From NCBI GenBank assembly GCA_030390025.1, contig CM059438.1, forward strand, positions 47,802,001 to 47,866,000: a DNA stretch of 64,000 nucleotides. The letters run 5' to 3'. Both the position numbers and the translations under genes were made by a program. Each line of letters starts with the position of its first letter. The first letter of the stretch is position 1. Shown one piece after another: positions 21,732 through 59,011 of the stretch. The stretch comes from Squalus acanthias (Eukaryota). The notes beneath the pieces were generated by a model. It had not been told where the DNA came from, made no database searches, and saw only the letters and a program-made list of their open reading frames with translations.

Positions 21732-22878
21732 GTAAGTACCTTCTCTCACGTTGTAAGATAACCTGAGCTCAGCAACGTGGTTGAAACAGAGGACATTGTA
21801 AAAGTTTGGAATTCTAACTGGCGGACTGCATTACTGTTTAAGCAGACTTTAAAGATAACCAAAATATGTTGCGATCCAAGGACTGTTCTAATTTTTACAT
21901 TACTAAACCGTGAAGGAATCTAAAAGAAACATAGTTTTCTTGTTTGGCACCCTACTAGATTGTCGTATCGAATTCTTCAGAAATTGAGTTTGGCTTGGTT
22001 GTAAAACAAGAGGTTGCTTGTATTGTCAGGCTGTGCTGTTTGGGAATTGGCCTGAAAACAGGAGCAAATAAAAATAATTTTCAGGAATTATGCATTGTTG
22101 GAATCAAACAGTTGATTGAAAAACAAAAGGTTGAATTCTTTTCTGGTACACAATGTTTCGTGAATGAACCTTGAACAAAATGTTGTCCGAGAGGCAGCAA
22201 ATGCCAGGCAGAGCGATTTCACTGAATGATTTCACTGAGGGTGTATTTATGTTGCAACTGTATCATCGGTACGATAAGTTATACTGTGAGTGCAGCCTGA
22301 ATCCAGGCCAACCTGACACTGCAATAAAGTGGAGTGCGACTCGTTTCAGAGTCCGTTCACACCCAGTTTACACTACACAAGCTTGGCATCAGTGCGAAAC
22401 CGAGTGCACTTCACACCGACACCAAACTTGTATTGTAAGTGCAGCGTAAAGGGTACAGAATTCACCAAGTGGCCAACAGTGACACTGCACTAAACCCAAT
22501 AGATCAGCAGCGAGTTGTCTTCTGCAACTCCTACTGGATGTTGTAGTTCTGATCATCTTACACACGGGGTGCAAAAAAGACGACTGCGGATATTTTGGAA
22601 AACTTGGAATATGCAAAACAGAAAAACGTACGTTCGATTGTTAAAAATGCATATTTAGGTCATCAACATTATTTCTTTAATTATTAACATTTATCTTTCT
22701 CTTTCGTGTGCAGAAATCAGTTTATAAAAACAGATTAGAAGTAAGTCCCTAAACCATTTTGGGATGCCAAAGGGACAGCCTGAGGTGATGAACGTTTCTA
22801 ACACCCAATGCTTATAGGGCTCAGAAACTTTAGACATGTACAACACGTTACAAAATTTTGCATAAAATTTTTTTTTTT

Positions 22879-47515: not shown

Positions 47516-48559
47516 TATAGGAGGTTGGTGATGGTGAGCATGTGATTTTTTTTTTCACATCAATCTATTTGTAAACTTTTTGCTTAAATCTAGCGTAACT
47601 AAGTGTTCAGCTTGTACTTCCTCATCTTGGACCTACTTTGAGTTTTAGATTTTCCTGAACTCCAATCATTCATCCATTGGGTAAACTGCAGGAATCTTAA
47701 CACCAAAGGACGCCCGATTTCTTTAGCAAGCATGGAGCTGCTGAGTCGCCACCTGCATCAGCTGTTCTTCAAAACTCTTACACAAGTGCAGGTTTCTGAA
47801 ATCTGTTGACCAGTTCATTGGATTATTAAAAATCAATTGTTGGTTTGAGTCTATGGTGTGCACAAACAGTACTCGGTGCTAGAACGAAATCTAAGTTCTA
47901 AATAATATGTTTTAGATTCCTTTTGAATATATGTTTTAAATACGCTCCTGTGTAGCGCCTTAGGACGTTTTTCTACGTTAAAGGTGCTATTAAAGGTGCT
48001 ATATAACCAAGTTTTTAATATTTAATAGATGCAGTTTAAATGTTTTAGATATATTTTTGAGATACAATTTTAGTATGTCTCGTATATGTTTAAAATATGT
48101 TTTGGTGATGGACAGAGCCTAGATCAGCCTACTGGTGCATATCTGTCCCATGGACATCATCTGATTATATTTGACCCAAAAGGAACAATAAACCTCCTGG
48201 CCTCCTCAATTTTGACCCAGGATATCAAACCCTTTAAGATTAGAAGTGAGTATTAAAAGTGCACAGTCCGCTAACACCGGCACCAGTAAGGCCTGTTCAC
48301 TCTCTAATGCGGAGTACTTGTTAATACCTTCCTATTTATTCCTGGGACTGGGCGATGTGGATTACGACCCCCCCTCATTATTTGTTTGCCCCTTACCAGA
48401 AATTGCGGTGGTTGTTTGTTTAGGTTTTATTTGGCCCTCAAGATAATGTTGACCTCGGTGCAGGATTCCCACCGGAGGGCATAGTCCCTTCTTGTAGGTT
48501 TGTTACAACTGGAGTTAGTTGGTGTACCCTAGCGCTGAGTGTGGCAGCAAAACACTAGG

Positions 48560-49481
48560 ACATAAGAACATCATAACATAAGAAATAGGTGCAGGAATAG
48601 GCCATTTGGCCCTTCGAGCCTGCTCCGCCATTCAATAAGATCATGGCTGATCTACCTCATCTCCACTTTCCTGCACTATCCCCATATCCCTTGATTCCCT
48701 TAATATTCAAAAATCTATCGATCTCTGTCTTGAATATACTCAATGACTGAGCCTCTACAGCCCTTTTCGATAGAGAATTCCAAAGATTCACCACCCTCTG
48801 AGTGAAGAAATTTCTCCTCATCTCAGTCCTAAATGGCCAACCCCTTATTCTGAGACTGTGGCCCCTGGTTCTCGACTCCCCAGCCAGGGGAAACATCCTC
48901 CCTGCATCTACCCTGTCAAGCCCTGTAAGAATTTTGTATGTTTCAATGAGATCACCTTTCATTCTTCTAAACTCCAGAGAATATAGGCCTAGTCTACTCA
49001 ATCTCTCCTCATAGGACAATCCCTCCATCCCAGGAACCAGTCTGGTGAACCTTCGTTGCACTCCCTCTATGGCAAGTATATCCTTCCTTAGGTAAGGAGA
49101 CCAAAACTGTACACAATACTCCAGGTGTGGTCTCACCAGGGCCCTATATAATTGCAATAAGACGTCTTTATTCTTTTATACTCAAATCCTCTTGTAATAA
49201 AGGCCAACATACCATTTGCTTTCCTAATTGCTTGCTGTACCTGCATGTTAACTTTCAGTGATTCGTGTACAAGGACATCCAGGTCCCTCTGAACAGCAAC
49301 ATTTCCCAATCTCTCACCATTTAAAAAATATTCTGCTTTTCTATTTTTCCTACCAAAGTGGATGACTTCACATTTCTCCACATTAAATTCCATTTGCCAT
49401 GTTCTTGCCCACTCACCTAACCTGTCTAAATCGCCTTGAAGCCTCCTTGCATTCTCCTCACAACTTACGTTCCCACCCAGC
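48560..49481 (-). mobile_element. CR1/HER1-type LINE 3' fragment, low divergence
   Basis: ORFs 49133..49393 (MEFNVEKCEVIHFGRKN) and 48657..49157 (LYRALVRPHLEYCVQFWSPY...FFTQRVVNLWNSL), separated by one frameshift; (CTTATGTT)n-like tail. Confidence 0.93.
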
Positions 49482-50349
49482 TCACATTCAAAGCAAAATT
49501 TGAATATCCCAGAAAAAGCAAGGCATCCAATGATTTGGAGGTGTTCCTGGAGATGTCGAGTCTCAACATTTCAATCCCCCCAAGTTCTTAAACACCACAT
49601 ATTTGTGCTGTCTTTAAAGTCGATAACGCATAATTAATTCTTTTGCTCCAACGCATTTAATGAGCACTTGACCCACTTACACAACACAATAGCAGCCTCA
49701 CATCAATGCAAACAGCACAAAATGTGTGGTTTAAATCATGTACACTGTGATTACTGAGATGTTTTATTCACTTAGACGAATAAGATACCCAATTTGAGCC
49801 ACAATTAGAAATGTCATATTTATCGTGCACAATAACTTCATAAATCTGCAAGGGAAATATTCCGCTGGGCTGCCTTTGGCGTATGTGCTTTAAATCATTA
49901 AGCTGCCTTAAATAACGCTGGCAGGATTTTGGTTCAGAGAGTTTTAACGGAAGATCTTCATCGGTACGCATTTAATGAGCATAGGTTTCTTGGCATTGTT
50001 CAAGAGATGCACAATATAGCGTGCAATATTTGCAAAAGTAACATTTGGAAATGTTGAATATTCTAAATTAAAACGAGAGAGAATGTTAATCGTCCAAAGT
50101 TGTATCCAGTCATCAATAATTTATTTCAGATGAGACCAAATATGCGAAGGAAAACGCCTACTAAAATTTAATTAAATGCAAACTAGTGTGGAGATTCTAT
50201 AAGCTTGTTCTGAGCACTGAATTCTCTGTCATCTGTTGGCACTTCAATGGGTAAGACTTGCAAACAGCGCTAACAATCTCTGCTGTTTTTTGTGTCACTT
50301 GGTCTGTTCTTCTTTGTTACTGAAATCGAATGGTGCACTAAAGTCCAGA

Positions 50350-50803
50350 AAGAAAGGACTTGCATTTATATAGTGCCATTCATGACCTCCGGATATCCAA
50401 AAGCGCTTTACAGCCAATGAAGTACTTTTTGAAGTGTAGTCACAGTTATAATGGAGGAAACGCAGCAGCCAATTTGTGCACAGCAAGCTCCCACAAACAG
50501 CAATGTGATAATTACCAGATGATCTGTTTGTGATGTTGGTTGAGACATAAATATTTGCCAGGGAGAGCTCTCCTGCTCTTCTTCCAGTCGTGCTATGGGA
50601 TCTTTTACATCCACCTGAGAGGGCAGACGGGGCCTTGGTTTAACATCTAATCTGAAAGACAGAACCTCTGACAGTGCAGTACTGAGGGAGTGCTGCACTG
50701 AGTGTTAGCCTGAATTATGTGCTCAAGTCTCTGGAGTGGGGGCTCGAACCCGCGACCTTCTGACTCAGAGGCGAGAGTGTTACCACTGAGCCAAGGCTGA
50801 CAG
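50350..50803 (-). mobile_element. SacSINE1-like DeuSINE
   Basis: Full reverse-complement copy ending CCACTGAGCCAAGGCTGACA. Confidence 0.88.
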
Positions 50804-51399
50804 TTAAACTGTAAGGACGGTTCAGTCTGATTAAAATCCTGGCTGAATTAATAGTTGAGTTAACAGGCATTGTGTTAAAGTTACGATACATAAATGTAAA
50901 CTGGAGTTGCAAATCTTTGGCTCACCATCACTGGACAAGCTGACTTCAGATCTGAATGGGATCGAGTTTAACCGATGTAAACTGGAAATTTAAAAAAGAA
51001 ACTAGATTAGTCATCTTGCACTCTCTTGAGGCAGAAGTGCCACCTTCTGTGGCATTATGGCACATTCAGTGTAATTTCCCTGGGCTCAGTCTTCACACAT
51101 GAAGTGCCATTTTAACTGACTGCAGTAAGGTACAATTTAAGCTGTACTGCTCAGTGATTTAATTAAAATATAAAATATAGGCAGGTTCTCTGCGCAAAAA
51201 AAAAGTCCAAAAAGTGAGATTTTACTGTAGACAATCTTTGAAAGTGGCACGACAAGTTGAGAAGACTGTTAAAAAAGCATACAGGATCCTGGGCTTTATA
51301 AATAGAGGTCATGATGCGGAGATGCCGGTGTTGGACTGGGGTGGACAAAATTGAGAGGTCACACAACACCAGGTTATAGTCCAACAGTTTTATTTGAAA

Positions 51400-51441
51400 T
51401 CACAAGCTTTCGGAGCTATCGATTGCTCCTTCCTCAGGTGA
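51400..51441 (-). ncRNA. Minimal type I hammerhead ribozyme motif (Penelope-associated), second copy
   Basis: Exact reverse complement of 51924-51965 in the left arm of the inverted repeat. Confidence 0.8.
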
Positions 51442-51923
51442 AGTAAATTAGATACAGAATCGCCAAAGCATATATAGATAGAAAACAAAGCATATGTACC
51501 TTACAATTGCAGACCACTAAATTAAATCATCCTGACTATCTGCTGAGGTGTGATAAAGTTAATTAAGTCAGCCAGGAAGGTACCACATCAAAGACATAGC
51601 AAGATACAACTGAGACAATGAGGTGTAGTCGCAGGGGTTCTAACGTGTCAAAAGCTGCCGTCTGTATGTAAAACGAAAAGCTTTAAAATTTTTACTTTTT
51701 TTACTGGGAATCACATCTGTGAACAAGCTAACGACGACTCGAGTCTGGATCACGTCATGTATCGTGACATAAACCCAAGATCCCGATTCCTGGCTGACTT
51801 AATTAACTTTATCACACCTCGGCAGATAGTCAGGATGATTTAATTTAGTGGTCTGCAATTGTAAGGTACACATGCTTTGTTTTCTATCTATATATGCTTT
51901 GGCGATTCTGTATCTAATTTACT

Positions 51924-51965
51924 TCACCTGAGGAAGGAGCAATCGATAGCTCCGAAAGCTTGTGA
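51924..51965 (+). ncRNA. Minimal type I hammerhead ribozyme motif (Penelope-associated), sense to ARID5B pre-mRNA
   Basis: TCAC-CTGAGGA-A-GGAGC-AATCGATA-GCTCC-GAAA-GC-TT-GTGA: stem I TCAC/GTGA, intact CUGANGA and GAAA core, 5-bp stem II, palindromic AGCT in place of helix III, UH site at 51960-61. Confidence 0.8.
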
Positions 51966-54394
51966 TTTCAAATAAAACTGTTGGACTATAACCTGGTGTT
52001 GTGCGACCTCTCAATTTTATAAATAGAGGCATAGAGTACAAAATCGAGGAAGTTATGATGAACCTTTATACATCACTTGGTCTCAGCTGGGGTATTGTGT
52101 CCAATTCTGGGCACCACACTTTAGGAACGATGTCAAGGCCTTGAAGAGGGTGCAAAGGAGATTTACTAGAATGGTTCCAGGCATGAGGGACTTCAGTTAC
52201 GCGGAAAGACTAGAGAAACTGGGGTTGTTCTCCTCCGAGCAGGGAAGATTTAATACAGGTCTTCAAAATTATGAAGGGTTTTGGTAGAGTAAATAAGGAG
52301 AATCTGTTTCCAGTGGCAGGAGGGTTGGTAAACAGAGGACACAGGTTTAAGATAATTGGCTGAAGAACCAGGGGAGGGGTGAGGAGAAATATTTTTATGC
52401 AGCGAGTTGTTATGATCTGGAATGCACTGCCTGAAAAGGGTGGTGGAAGCTGATTTAATAGTAATTTCAAAAGGCCATTGGATATATACTTGAAAAGGAA
52501 AAATTTGCAGGGCTATGGGGAAAGAGCAGAGAGCGGACTGGGACTAATTGGATAGCTCTTTGAAAGAGCTGGCACAGGCACGATGGGCCGAATGGCCTCC
52601 TGTGCTGTATGACCGTATGATTAAGAGCTTCAGTACTTTGTACACAACCAGCTGTCTCCTTAATGTGGACTGAAGCTAAATAGAACAGCTTAGAATTAAG
52701 AGGTTATTCACAGACAGTGCTAATAAAAAATAGTTGCTGTGAGAAATGGTAGATTGTGATGCTATTTCAGGCATTTTATGCCTCAGAATATCTGGCATTA
52801 TTGCCTTAATCAGCGACATAATGAGACAGGAAGTCCGATCCCAAAAGGGAGATGGTTGCAAACTGACTGAACTGTTTATACTTTGTGTGTTTTGGTCTGT
52901 GAAGAGAATTATGGAAGGAATATAATAACTGAAGTAATGGGATCATGTTCCAGTGACGCTAAATTGGATTTTCATTTGCAGTAATTAAGAGGTTGTTTTG
53001 TTCACATTCTGGCACCAGCACATGAAACCTAATAGTTAAAGAGTATATTTATGTCAGGCTGCAAGATAATCCTTTGTTAAGTTTGCTGCAGTACTTGATT
53101 TACATGCCCTGATATTTAAACACGGGGTTTTATGTTCATCGATAGTGTGAGGGGATATTGTACATTAGCCCAATACATTTCCTAGAATTTAATTTTGTGG
53201 TTTAGTGCTGCCTTTTATAGGCAGAAATTTAAAGGACACTTTTTTAAAACATTTTGTAGCGTGTCCCCTGACTTCCAAATAAAACAAAGAATTAACTCGC
53301 AAGAGTCTACAAATTCCTATTGAAATTGCTGTCCTACTAGGAACTGATGGCGTCAGCATGTTTGCATGACAAAGCAATAATACCTTCCCCTCAAAACCTG
53401 GCGCGGCCTTTTTGGACTTTGAAATTGTCCGCGCTCATTTTAAACTGGAGCTGCAAATGCTTTTAAACCTTGGGAGCAAGCTTTCCACAGCCATTAGCAC
53501 GTAAGCATTCAGCAGTTCTGTTCATATACTCGCAGAGTTAATTGCAAGGGAAAGATTTTAATTAATTGATGATAAAGCTGCGGTAACTACCAATTTACCA
53601 ATCAGCAGAGGAGGTAGCAGTGGATCTTGAAACTACAGAACTGCTTTTAGTAATTTGCTACCTAAACGCTAATAGGTTACCTTTATCCTGCTTTTTAATA
53701 ATTGTTCTGCCAGCGCCCCCAGTTTGCGCGGGGCTGCTTATTGTGTTACGTTACGGTTTTGTGCACTTGGAAAAGTATCAGCAAACTACTCCAATCCATC
53801 TGTGTTGTCTTTCTTCAGTGGGCAGGCAATTTTGTTAGCAGTGCACTTGTTTGCAAGCAACTAATACATCTGACATATATAAGCATCCACTGCCTGAAAA
53901 GCAGAGCCAGGGCCTCCGAAATGTTGAAAGTCACATAAAATATCGAATTACACAAAAACAGCGAGCCAGCAGATCTTTCCAGTACCACATTCTTCGACAT
54001 GAGTAACTGGGCCCTGAGCTGTACGCGGGCGCAGTGCCTTTCAAAACGAGTTGGCGATCAGACCCAGCAAAGCAACTGAAATCATTGTTACTGTGAAAGA
54101 GGTGGGACGAGATGACAACAAATGGGCCGTGAGCAGTTAAAGCTTGCAAGTGTTTTTTTTCCCGCTAGGCAGTCCATCCCATTTTTTTTTTGTTTTGTCA
54201 AGTGATCTGTTGTTACGTGTGTAATCGTCCTTTTGAGCAGGGGCAAAAGAAGTTGTGGGCACACAAGAGAGGAAACACTACGATTATTGGCAAGTGCTTC
54301 AACTTAACGGGCATCAGAGTGGCAGAAATGGTGCAGTGCCCCATGTTGCAGTACTAATGTCTGAGGCTGTTAGCACCAGGTTGATTCAACCCAA

Positions 54395-54398
54395 ATGG
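54395..54398 (+). CDS. ARID5B: Candidate alternative first exon coding end (ATG G) of the short ARID5B isoform
   Basis: cccaaATGG|GTAACA; splicing to 58010 gives MAPNLKGRPRKK, the recalled N-terminus of the short mammalian isoform. Lies in a repeat-free block 3.6 kb upstream of exon 5. No transcript evidence. Confidence 0.45.
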
Positions 54399-55173
54399 GT
54401 AACAATGTTTTTTTTTCTCTCTTTCTATGTTTGTTCTGTGTCTCCTTTGTATTTCTTCGACTGGCTGTGTTAGTCATTCTGTCAGTAGGACAGTTAAATG
54501 TTCTTTGTGTGGTTAGTGTATTACGCGACTCACCGCAGACGTAGTGTTTAGTCGGGGTAAAATGGGCCAAATATTTTCCACAGTAGCTTTAAGTGAACTA
54601 AATTAAGAAATAGCCACTGCACAGTTCTAAGTGTAGTGAAGTGAGCAGCATTTCATAGTACCAGTCCTATGTAGTGTGTGTCTTTCTCTGTCTCGGTGTG
54701 TCTGTGCGTGTGTTGGGGTGTGGGGGTGCGGGGGTGCGGGGGGGGGGGGGGGTGGTGACTTCACTTTTGCTGTAATCTGTGCAGGATGTTATCACACTTC
54801 AACAATGCTATAAAAGAATTCCAAACCCAAACCATTTTTGGACATACTCAAATGTGCTGCAGTTTGTCTAATATTTCTGAATCGGCTCAAATTGGATCAT
54901 TTCCTCAGTCAGTGCTATTTAAAGGTCACCTCCGCATTTGTTATGCATGCTTCGAATAATTAGTAACATGCAATGGGAAGCATTTTCTTAATTAACGGAA
55001 TAACATTTCTGGAACGCTCTTTACACAATCTAATTGACTAACGACTAATATGTCACTTGTATGTTTTGGCTACAAACTCAAATATAGATAATAAACACTG
55101 TGTAAGGTATCCTAAGGCATTCTTATTGAAGGTAAATAATTCAAAGCACTGAATAAGATGAATTTCACAGTGT

Positions 55174-55175
55174 TA

Positions 55176-55206
<31 letters not shown>

Positions 55207-55210
55207 TTTT
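55174..55210. repeat. (TA)n plus poly-T microsatellite
   Basis: Direct reading. Confidence 0.95.
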
Positions 55211-57309
55211 ATCAAGCTAAATGACCCCTTTAAAAAGCCCAACACACAGCAGCAAGGTTGCATTATGTTGTTCTACCATATTTTCAGCGACTCCTTTGCT
55301 TTGGAGACACTTTACTGAGTCCCATTGCTCATTACAGTTTATGTCTGAACCCTGTCATTAAAAATCATCAGCGACTGAACAAATATACAGTAATTAAATG
55401 GGAATTGTTGCTTATTTCATACAGCTTTTGATGTTTTGGCTGCTCTTTATAGTACGATATGAAAGAAAGTTTGAACTTGGCTTTTGAGTTGTCAAACACT
55501 GTGCTTAATGATTCCTAATCTCTCTGATCTTTTGTAACTGTTTCCAAGCACTTCAGCAAAGCAAGATCTCAAATAGTCGTGTTTCAAGCAGTTGTTATTT
55601 AGTTTTGGAATATTCCACTCCATCGCGAAAGGTGCTTGAATTCCTTTCCTTGAATCTAGAATCGCTGTGTGACCGACGTGAGTTGTATTCCCTGGGGCAC
55701 CGCTGGCTTGGTATGAGCATGTCATTCTCATTGCAATCACTCGACAAGTAGAGTGAGATTTATGGTGCATTGGGCTCTTCCAGGCAATGATGTGCTAAAT
55801 ATCAAAGCGTGGCGGCACTGAGGTGTGTTTGCAGCTATCATGTGATGAAACTCCGTTCTACGCTCACTTTTGTAGGAGCGCTCTACATTCGGCCTGATTT
55901 ATAACAAGTATTTCACCTTTTACTGCCTGTGTGTGTACGAGAGATCAAAAACCCAGACAAATGTAAATCTGATCATCGCCGCTGCGAATACTGTATTTCA
56001 ATTATCATTTTACAAGCAGAATAACCTCCGCAGTATCTATGGATTTTTGTTTTGTTGCAATTGCAGAAATGTATCAGTTGCAGGAGAAGAGTAGGATGTT
56101 AGATAGATAAAGATCACCTGTCTAAAGTGACTGGAATTGAGCAGAGTCACCTTTGATCCAGGGTAATGAAATCCAGCCGCAGCAGACACCTATAAAACAG
56201 TAACTCTGCCAGCTGTTTGGATCTATCCTTCAGCTGCCCGTTAGATGTCTCTTCCCGTTTTTCATTTTTGTTGAAGTCAACGGGCGTCTGATCCGATGTC
56301 GCTTGTTTTACACCATCACCCAAAGTCAAGATCTCCACCGTTGAGGGTGATTGGGACACATTAATGATGCCCAGTCAAGGCAGGAGTAGCATTTATCGGG
56401 GGGGGGGGGGCAAGGATTCAGTTTGCAGCCCACTACATTTTACTGGACAACGTTATTAAGTACCGCCTACTTAACCTGGTGTCAACTTCGCACCCGTACG
56501 GTGGTGGAAAGGCAGGTTGGCAAAAGTAGTGTAGAAATAGCTGCGCAGTGATCAGGGAAATCAGCTGTCACCATTGCGCAGGTGTCCTTCCATGGATCCA
56601 CCCCAGACTAGCTCGGGGTCCCATGCAATCGGCATGGTTTGAACCTTGACCCTTTAGGTCAAGGGGGGGCGGCCACGGATGAGAAATGGTTCCTGACACC
56701 AGTGGGGTGAAAGTGACCGAAGAACGCGAAATGGGCATCTTGCTGCATGTGACATTACGGTGATGATCTAAACACGATGCTGCAGTGATTGTGCTGCTAC
56801 ATGTTGGGATCTTAATTTACAGCCACGTGGCAGAGCTGCTGCTGTGCAAAGGGAGCGAGTTGTTGCTGCAAAGCAATTTTTTTTTGCTGCATGTGAATTT
56901 CGAGAATTAAAAAAAAAATACATATATCTTGTTTTGGAAGCGAACCAAAATGTTGTCGATGTGAAAACTCTCCCTTTTGCAATTTCAGCTGAAGAAAATG
57001 TGTTTGGTTAAATATTTTGCAGTGGAGTTATTTATAGCATGAAAGTAGTGCAGCTGCACAGAATGTACATGCTTGGTACACGGAGAGCTCTTCGCTGTCA
57101 TTTGCTCTGGTCTTTCTGGAACCTGCAGTTTCTATGGGAAATCGGAATGACTGCAGGGTCACACCGGGAATGGGCATCAAAAGCTCCTGCACTTTAAGTG
57201 GGAAAGTGACCGTGTGCGCTAAGCAATGCGCCTTATATACGAACGGCCCAGTTGAGGAAGCTTATTCAAAAAGCAGTTGTCTGATGTTGGGTTGGTTTGA
57301 CCAACGTGA

Positions 57310-58009: not shown

Positions 58010-58128
58010 CACCTAATCTCAAAGGCCGACCTCGGAAGAAGAAGCCCTACTCCCAGAAGCGGGACGCACAAGCTCTAAATGGCTTGAGAGATTCCAATGA
58101 GGATTCAGATGGGAAAGGCAATGCCAAG
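58010..58128 (+). CDS. ARID5B: ARID5B internal coding exon (equivalent to human exon 5), phase 1-0, 119 bp
   Basis: Acceptor ttctttcgatttcAG at 58008-09, donor AAG|GTAGGA at 58129. Spliced to the previous exon it reads (A)PNLKGRPRKKKPYSQKRDAQALNGLRDSNEDSDGKGNAK, matching recalled APNLKGRPRKKKP...SDGKAVAK. Too short for the ORF track. Confidence 0.96.
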
Positions 58129-58806: not shown

Positions 58807-59011
58807 TCGAAATGCGAGCCCAAAACCACGATGGCAAAACCCAAGAATAACAACAGCATCTGCAAAAATATAGCAGCTGATGAAAAATCAAAGGTTGCAG
58901 CAGGCGATGAATGCAGAGCAGAGGAGCAGACATTCCTCGTCACTCTTTACAAGTACATGAAAGAAAGAAATACTCCAATAGAAAGGATACCGTACCTCGG
59001 ATTCAAACAAA
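58807..59011 (+). CDS. ARID5B: ARID5B internal coding exon (equivalent to human exon 6), start of ARID/BRIGHT DNA-binding domain, phase 0-1, 205 bp
   Basis: Acceptor ttttccaactcAG at 58805-06, donor A|GTAAGT at 59012. Reads SKCEPKTTMAKPKNNNSICKNIAADEKSKVAAGDECRAEEQTFLVTLYKYMKERNTPIERIPYLGFKQ, the ARID5 signature (EQxFLxxLYKYMKERxTPIERIPYLGFKQ). Inside ORF 58741..59055. Confidence 0.97.

Follow-up and report, generated by a model that had tools for sequence, protein, structure and literature searches.

Head-to-head insertion of a young Penelope-like element in an ARID5B intron of Squalus acanthias, and the palindromic target of its family

The stretch analysed here (the window) comprises 64,000 nucleotides of the Squalus acanthias genome (assembly GCA_030390025.1, contig CM059438.1, positions 47,802,001 to 47,866,000 of the forward strand), and all positions below are counted from its first letter. 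Within an intron of the gene ARID5B, the window holds a young insertion of a Penelope-like element (PLE) with an inverted partial pseudo-long terminal repeat (pLTR), the two copies of which form a hairpin bearing a hammerhead ribozyme motif on each strand. We consider it likely that this insert is a single recent, doubly truncated, head-to-head insertion into an old long interspersed nuclear element (LINE), with a double cut and two-end priming as the likely route and a role in the host as an unlikely one. The ARID5B hairpin is the usual insertion product of its family, one of thousands. Hence, the insert is a new example of a described PLE layout, and the less ordinary part is a target motif found family-wide.

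The left and right arms of the insert, 232 nt each, are 99% complementary and spaced by 208 nt, the second-best inverted repeat within 3.5 kb being only 22 nt long. They mismatch at three places (positions 51821, 51871 and 52004 of the right arm), two of which are at CpG; comparison with a natural full-length copy places all three substitutions as derived on the left arm, and the differences correspond to C>T/G>A decay. The insert is bracketed by a 14-bp direct repeat, best read as a 12-bp duplication plus 2 nt common to the element, and 3 nt of the right duplication copy also match the PLE. On the minus strand, 51788-51750 encode NRDLGFMSRYMT followed by the stop codon, i.e., the C-terminus of full-length 892-aa open reading frames (ORFs) present elsewhere in the genome. 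A 38-bp tail, ending just past the element start codon, is carried by the left copy only, and the right copy stops about 40 bp short of the left copy's end. The hairpin fold predicted for the whole insert reaches -467 kcal/mol. The arm layout, the 14-bp repeat, the last 12 codons of the ORF and the hammerhead core on each strand are all as the initial annotation of the window had described them from its letters. The features of the insert and its target are the following.

51225..52620, plus strand: older LINE ORF2 fragment split by the insertion (approximate limits), which we take to be CR1-like; at other loci the corresponding segment follows a reverse transcriptase (RT) domain
51286..51294, plus strand: left half-site of the palindromic target (motif model)
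51295..51308, plus strand: left target-duplication copy; 51295-51306 are the central 12 bp of the palindrome, and 51307-51308 also match element positions +5/+6
51309..51346, minus strand: 38-bp tail, restricted to the left copy and lying between the two zones where reverse transcription starts, with the ORF start codon at 51312-51310; a tail as in PMC8557442 and PMC11167929
51347..51578, minus strand: left arm, the pLTR portion belonging to the longer copy and spanning element positions +6 to -499 from the ATG, bearing all three derived substitutions
51400..51441, minus strand: minimal type I hammerhead motif, antisense to ARID5B, mirror of 51924-51965, core at 51437
51579..51749, minus strand: 3' untranslated region (UTR) of the element, forming the hairpin loop, with an A-rich tract shorter than in compared copies
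51750..51788, minus strand: last 12 codons and stop of the RT/GIY-YIG ORF, matched to full-length ORFs
51787..51788, no strand: head-to-head junction of the two 5'-truncated copies, with 2-bp microhomology
51787..52018, plus strand: right arm, shorter copy without tail, element -261 to -35; 52016-52018 are common to the duplication
51924..51965, plus strand: minimal type I hammerhead on the ARID5B sense strand, core at 51928, predicted cut after 51961, features as in PMC4209133
52016..52029, plus strand: right target-duplication copy (direct-repeat match)
52028..52036, plus strand: right half-site of the palindromic target (motif model)

The A-rich UTR tract (51680-51700) falls about 22-27 nt short of its length in the compared copies, through slippage or deletion. 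None of the public contigs bridges the insertion's junctions; contigs from two other organisms cover the unique left flank and leave a coverage gap over most of the arm and loop at 92%, which is not evidence.

The parent family is an endonuclease-bearing PLE of about 3.14 kb, whose 892-aa ORF combines RT and GIY-YIG. This ORF was intact in 17 of 17 fetched full-length loci, at 97.5-99.9% identity to the reference copy, and a protein search of the genome returned many open frames of 921 codons. Head-to-tail units of 3,138-3,139 bp (L102, L104 and others) form the pLTRs. In full-length relatives, RVT_1 was matched at 35.1 bits, above the cut-off of 29.6, and GIY-YIG was matched in the C-terminal 421 aa at E 7.5e-4, with a score that did not reach the cut-off; the stretch separating the VVY and YIG triads holds two Cys, and two His follow downstream. 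A CX2-5CxxC linker at aa 753-761, ahead of the GIY-YIG domain, points to the Neptune or Nematis clade, the linker being the sole basis of the clade name (PMC8557442). When exact patterns were searched in the animal's own genome, 3,742 copies of a hammerhead 32-mer and 20,317 copies of an arm-end 29-mer were found, with 0 for either reversed control. The assignment to a young Penelope-like insertion with an inverted partial pLTR, already made in the initial annotation, is supported.

The layout was then followed across 135 insertions, namely the window's own, 74 from the first 96 hammerhead 32-mer matches, 58 reached via the 29-mer and two more via the 32-mer. Six ran off their locus, leaving 129 complete insertions, of which 67 were inverted and 62 single-armed. 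Among the 100 hammerhead 32-mer matches listed, 44 were in 22 divergent pairs and 2 in one convergent pair; 54 of the 100 29-mer matches listed were in 27 divergent pairs within 4 kb (hand count). By extrapolation, inverted inserts would number about 5,500 genome-wide. The initial annotation had looked ahead to a count of copies with the same layout and had presented the arrangement as special; more than half of the sampled complete insertions share it, and it is already in print. Indeed, an adjacent inverted truncated copy with a one-sided tail was described in PLEs (PMC8557442), the same inverted-copy layout in rotifers (PMC3846280), and minimal hammerheads on opposite strands, 100-700 bp apart, in PMC4209133. 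Some inverted arms are atypical. In four loci they start deep in the ORF or UTR (L094:1353-3201, L007, L080 and L105), L094 resembling L1-style twin priming with adjacent breakpoints. In five others (L081, L123, L124, L133 and L136) the inverted arm consists of the tail or part of it only, and the arm of L081 ends at -34, the point at which the short copy starts, as though one RT had blocked the other.

Throughout the family, insertions target a bipartite palindrome, approximately CC[CA]TG-N16-CA[GT]GG, with the target duplication at its centre. The duplication is mostly 12-14 bp, with about 12 bp centred in the palindrome, and was resolved (17 nt or less) at 100 of the 129 complete insertions. 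A palindromic model derived from 35 unrelated training sites reached 10.8 bits, against a maximum of 4.3 in 100 shuffles, and an odd-width palindrome performed worse than the even one (9.2 vs 10.8 bits). The model was applied to 21 held-out unrelated sites, unlike any training site, and to 2,400 flank controls allowed the same shift freedom: 19 held-out sites exceeded the 95th percentile of the controls (P 1.5e-14), and 12 exceeded the 99th. G-N16-C was present in 49 of 56 unrelated sites. The duplication started at the same motif position in 66 of the 100 resolved sites and covered the central 12 bp in 82. A target within the pLTR itself was not supported, none of the eight best monomer sites lying there. 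Searches of full texts, some aimed at targets or mechanism and none extending to subscription papers, supplements or Repbase reports, turned up no palindromic target with near-fixed stagger; the available parts of PMC12910113 and bioRxiv 2026.07.22.740005 say nothing on targets, and those of PMC8557442 describe moderate target preferences and variable duplications from separate nicks.

The empty site of the window scored 13.4 bits with its own cluster left out, a score matched by one of 63,971 window positions. The same LINE site accounted for 15 of the 100 resolved sites, and genome-wide this hot spot showed 579 exact left and 572 exact right junctions vs 4,036 exact empty sites. The inner breakpoints were all different in the 25 hot-spot copies inspected, and these copies are therefore independent insertions; 19 of their right ends were at -35/-36, five ran off the locus and one differed. 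Since the site is a LINE hot spot outscoring all but one of the window's positions, the position of the ARID5B insert is explained by target preference. Recurrent targets were also seen in other repeats, in clusters of 10, 6, 6 and 4 per 100 sites (loci L021, L043, L045, L053, L075, L082, L154, L165, L166 and L188, plus smaller clusters). Besides, contigs of runs X1, X2 and X6 aligned at 51305-51359 run from the LINE hot spot into the short end of other copies; these joins have short sides, include one run of another organism, and give a weak hint of a shared preference.

A second regularity concerns the ends of the copies. In 59 of the 67 inverted insertions one long end is paired with one short end; long-long and short-short pairs were both absent, and eight insertions had an end elsewhere. 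The long end lies at about +1 to +6 from the ATG and the short end at about -32 to -48, with the mode at -38/-39. At the target ends, primer and template match over 1-3 nt. With the cut fixed at the central 12 bp and 10 ends with added letters set aside, the mean microhomology was 1.36 nt for the long ends (n = 45, null 0.45) and 1.67 nt for the short ends (n = 51, null 0.68), values reached by 0 of 2,000 permutations in each case.

We lean, with some reserve, toward a dimeric, sequence-selective nuclease-RT that would read the TG-N16-CA palindrome, make a concerted cut with a 12-nt stagger and prime at both ends, one subunit serving each. Such a dimer would nick both strands of the palindrome about 12 bp apart, leaving two 3' ends; each of them would prime at one of the two zones, and both would be extended on sense RNA uncut at the hammerhead. 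The two complementary DNAs (cDNAs) would stop early and be joined through microhomology, yielding arms, loop and one-sided tail. A lizard PLE was reported to cut and extend both strands in vitro, with two internal starts bounding the tail, on uncut RNA and with a predicted dimer (PMC11167929).

Several points weigh against this reading. The mechanism is read from genomic products only. A usable duplication was lacking (no call, or more than 17 nt) in 29 of the 129 complete insertions, which were excluded from the motif work; the full TG-N16-CA occurs in only 36 of the 56 unrelated sites, and in 18 of 100 cases the duplication fails to span the central 12 bp. The single-armed insertions also count against it, and sampling was confined to the start of one contig and guided by exact motifs, so that genome-wide figures are extrapolated. 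The lizard element cuts at AT-rich ATT with no primer-template homology (PMC11167929), and variable duplication length was attributed to separate nicks (PMC8557442). As for the host, the likely absence of a function is argued from abundance, youth and ribozyme architecture.

In a different route, only one end would be primed. The inverted arm would then arise from a template switch or from fold-back self-priming, which for rotifer Penelopes was proposed to use an antisense template, and the second nick would follow later. Self-priming from palindromic junctions was proposed in PMC3846280, several sampled junctions are near-perfect palindromes with equal breakpoints (e.g., -129/-129 and -246/-246), and the 62 single-armed insertions also speak for it. 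However, fold-back alone does not predict a symmetric target, a near-fixed centred duplication, primer matches at the outer ends or the pairing of long with short ends, and in the ARID5B insert the two breakpoints differ (-499 and -261) and are joined by 2 bp. We regard this route as unlikely and retain double cutting with priming from both ends.

In each of the two hammerhead motifs of the insert, stem I has 4 bp and stem II 5 bp, A9 is followed by an extra A, and a palindromic AGCU replaces stem III. They match the minimal type I PLE hammerhead as defined in PMC4209133, with the core boxes, G10.1-C11.1, the extra nucleotide, the palindromic 15.2-16.2 and the short stem I. As a monomer the motif is predicted to fold with stems I and II only (-13 kcal/mol). 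The search of Rfam suggested in the initial annotation was negative, the covariance models giving no hammerhead match at E<=10 within 48000-56000. Stem I, AGCU and the pairing of stem II are retained in the 13 commonest motif variants (197 of 256 arms), eight of which have C at position 4; such conservation in the family speaks for a role in the element, not in the host. Loop II (51941-51948) of this subfamily is a 6-nt palindrome, and co-folding of two copies predicts pairing via stem-loop II rather than a catalytic dimer.

The copied arms also bear on the state of the template. Among 89 sampled arms, 83 were copied well past the scissile bond, from which it follows that the template RNA was uncut at the hammerhead. 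Only one of the 89 begins exactly at that bond, and hammerhead cleavage as the source of the 5' ends was thus rejected. The 5' breakpoint of 24 arms (L146-L203) falls in a 20-nt zone, -135 to -115, directly before the hammerhead and not at the cut site, some arm 5' ends in this breakpoint count varying with the reference variant. Uncut RNA as the main template was likewise described for a PLE whose hammerhead was cleaved in vitro only with the element protein (PMC11167929), and in PMC4209133 a single minimal hammerhead gave no cleavage and dimers gave low cleavage.

The host gene is identified by its downstream exons. The plus-strand exon at 58807-59011 matches the ARID domain of ARID5B (PDB 1ig6, E 9e-13), with a partial Pfam ARID match, and one RNA-type contig joins 58128 to 58807 across GT..AG, both exons being in frame; the ARID family search did not list the window locus. 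Upstream, an exon that we assign to ARID5B ends at 21732 with a GT donor. As exons flank it at 21732 and downstream, the insert is placed roughly 6 kb short of the next exon, within an intron of some 36 kb, with the antisense arm first on the plus strand, in agreement with the initial annotation. The features of the host are listed below.

54395..54400, plus strand: candidate start codon (ATG) with a donor-like site (ATGG/GT) for an alternative first exon, presumably fitting the first exon of a short isoform
58010..58128, plus strand: ARID5B exon downstream of the host intron, with the splice joint to 58807; presumably exon 5 by human numbering
58807..59011, plus strand: ARID5B exon starting the ARID domain (1ig6 match, splice joint)

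No splice joint for the candidate short-isoform start near 54.4 kb was seen in four RNA-type runs, and the bin with this exon had a depth of 1.6-2.8 in three such runs, as in other intron bins. The intron holds a further LINE ORF2 fragment (48657-49570, minus strand), presumably CR1-like as well. Pfam gave no informative match for the flanking LINE pieces or the upstream exon, so that the term 'CR1-like', the numbering of the exons and the isoform layout are provisional labels.

In the initial annotation, the inversion was thought to mask a cleavage-competent ribozyme in the ARID5B pre-mRNA, while the hairpin, via ADAR or Dicer, would regulate ARID5B or its short isoform. The antisense arm is indeed first on the plus strand, the core is intact, its pairing is kept in the commonest variants, and protein-assisted cleavage of a PLE hammerhead was obtained in vitro (PMC11167929). 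Since the fold of the whole insert is so much more stable than that of the ribozyme (-467 vs -13 kcal/mol), the arms would pair if the intron is transcribed. However, within 264 kb (the window plus 100 kb on each side) the copy at 51924-51965 is the only sense-strand hammerhead. The lone ARID5B hammerhead is predicted to need a partner, and masking is probably moot because stem III and a sense partner are missing, lone minimal hammerheads stayed uncleaved (PMC4209133) and the family's arms were read through. Further, thousands of equal hairpins exist in the genome, the site is explained by target preference, the three differences between the arms are C>T/G>A decay, and the short-isoform start is a candidate only. 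We therefore judge regulation of ARID5B by a masked ribozyme very improbable. About 20 kb past the window (L217, ~83626-83752) there is an older antisense Penelope end fragment with a related hammerhead, 84% identical. Two other sources for the motif were rejected: a CPEB3-like intronic ribozyme recruited by the host, given 3,742 identical copies and no stem III, and a non-LTR retrozyme, given that the insert holds an ORF end, is inverted and matches autonomous elements.

Least probable of all, and by our estimate close to negligible, is that artefacts of copying or assembly (one duplicated composite, or a mis-assembled fold-back read) account for the hairpin and for the recurrence at the LINE site. 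Duplication does occur, as in the inserts L071 and L072, which share flanks and breakpoints, lie 114 kb apart in opposite orientation and represent a local duplication, and public contigs do not span the junctions. But the two arms are told apart by three mismatches and by the tail, the insert has a flanking target duplication, all 25 hot-spot copies have different inner breakpoints and the motif holds at unrelated sites.

For ARID5B itself, the locus appears ordinary, such a hairpin being expected in a large vertebrate gene from copy number. In the pre-mRNA the arms would pair into a long duplex like thousands of others, possibly as a passive ADAR substrate; whether or not the left arm is present, the lone hammerhead would be inactive. 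For PLEs, the formation of inverted repeats and tails was named an open task (PMC8557442). If the proposed mechanism is true, one dimer cut-and-prime step would explain the inverted pLTR, the one-sided tail and the LINE hot spots together. The symmetric target, the near-fixed stagger and the long/short pairing provide a defined substrate and predicted products for an in vitro assay, and this genome holds many intact, near-identical ORFs. The counts also imply some thousands of near-perfect hairpins of 100-1,000 bp with a ribozyme motif on both strands, which would form a natural test set for the surveillance of double-stranded RNA in cartilaginous fish.

In L1 twin priming, both target ends prime cDNA, giving an inverted, microhomology-joined insert whose parts copy adjacent, non-overlapping RNA. 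Two-end priming and an inverted insert joined by microhomology are common to both systems, but the dogfish-family hairpin is unlike L1 because its two copies begin within about 45 nt of each other and reproduce one and the same sequence. The minimal hammerheads of metazoan PLEs (PMC4209133) have the same short stem I, the extra nucleotide between 9 and 10.1, the palindromic 15.2-16.2 and no stem III; the window's motif differs from them in loop II sequence only, and its spacing to the opposite-strand motif, about 490 bp, compares with the 100-700 bp given there. With Neptune and Nematis the dogfish family shares the CX2-5CxxC linker before GIY-YIG, a linker hypothesised to serve microsatellite targeting (PMC8557442), whereas the targets of the dogfish family are not microsatellites. 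The 5'-truncated copy with an adjacent inverted one, the one-sided tail of 30-40 bp, the target duplication and the pLTR hammerhead are all found in Pen2a of Adineta vaga and other EN-positive PLE units (PMC3846280, PMC8557442). The duplications reported there are variable (8-10 bp in Adineta), with no motif given in the available parts of these papers, whereas in the dogfish family a palindrome surrounds the duplication, which mostly measures 12-14 bp, and the one-sided-tail rule could be counted for the latter (59 of 67). Finally, PAc, the Poseidon element of Anolis carolinensis (PMC11167929), likewise has two internal reverse-transcription starts bounding the tail, cutting and extension of both strands, a predicted dimer and insertion for which hammerhead cleavage is not needed. 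It differs in its AT-rich ATT sites and absence of primer homology, against G/C-containing half-sites and 1-3 nt of homology in the dogfish family, and in a tail that ends 111-118 nt into the ORF instead of at the start codon; the CX2-5CxxC linker further sets the dogfish family apart from PAc.

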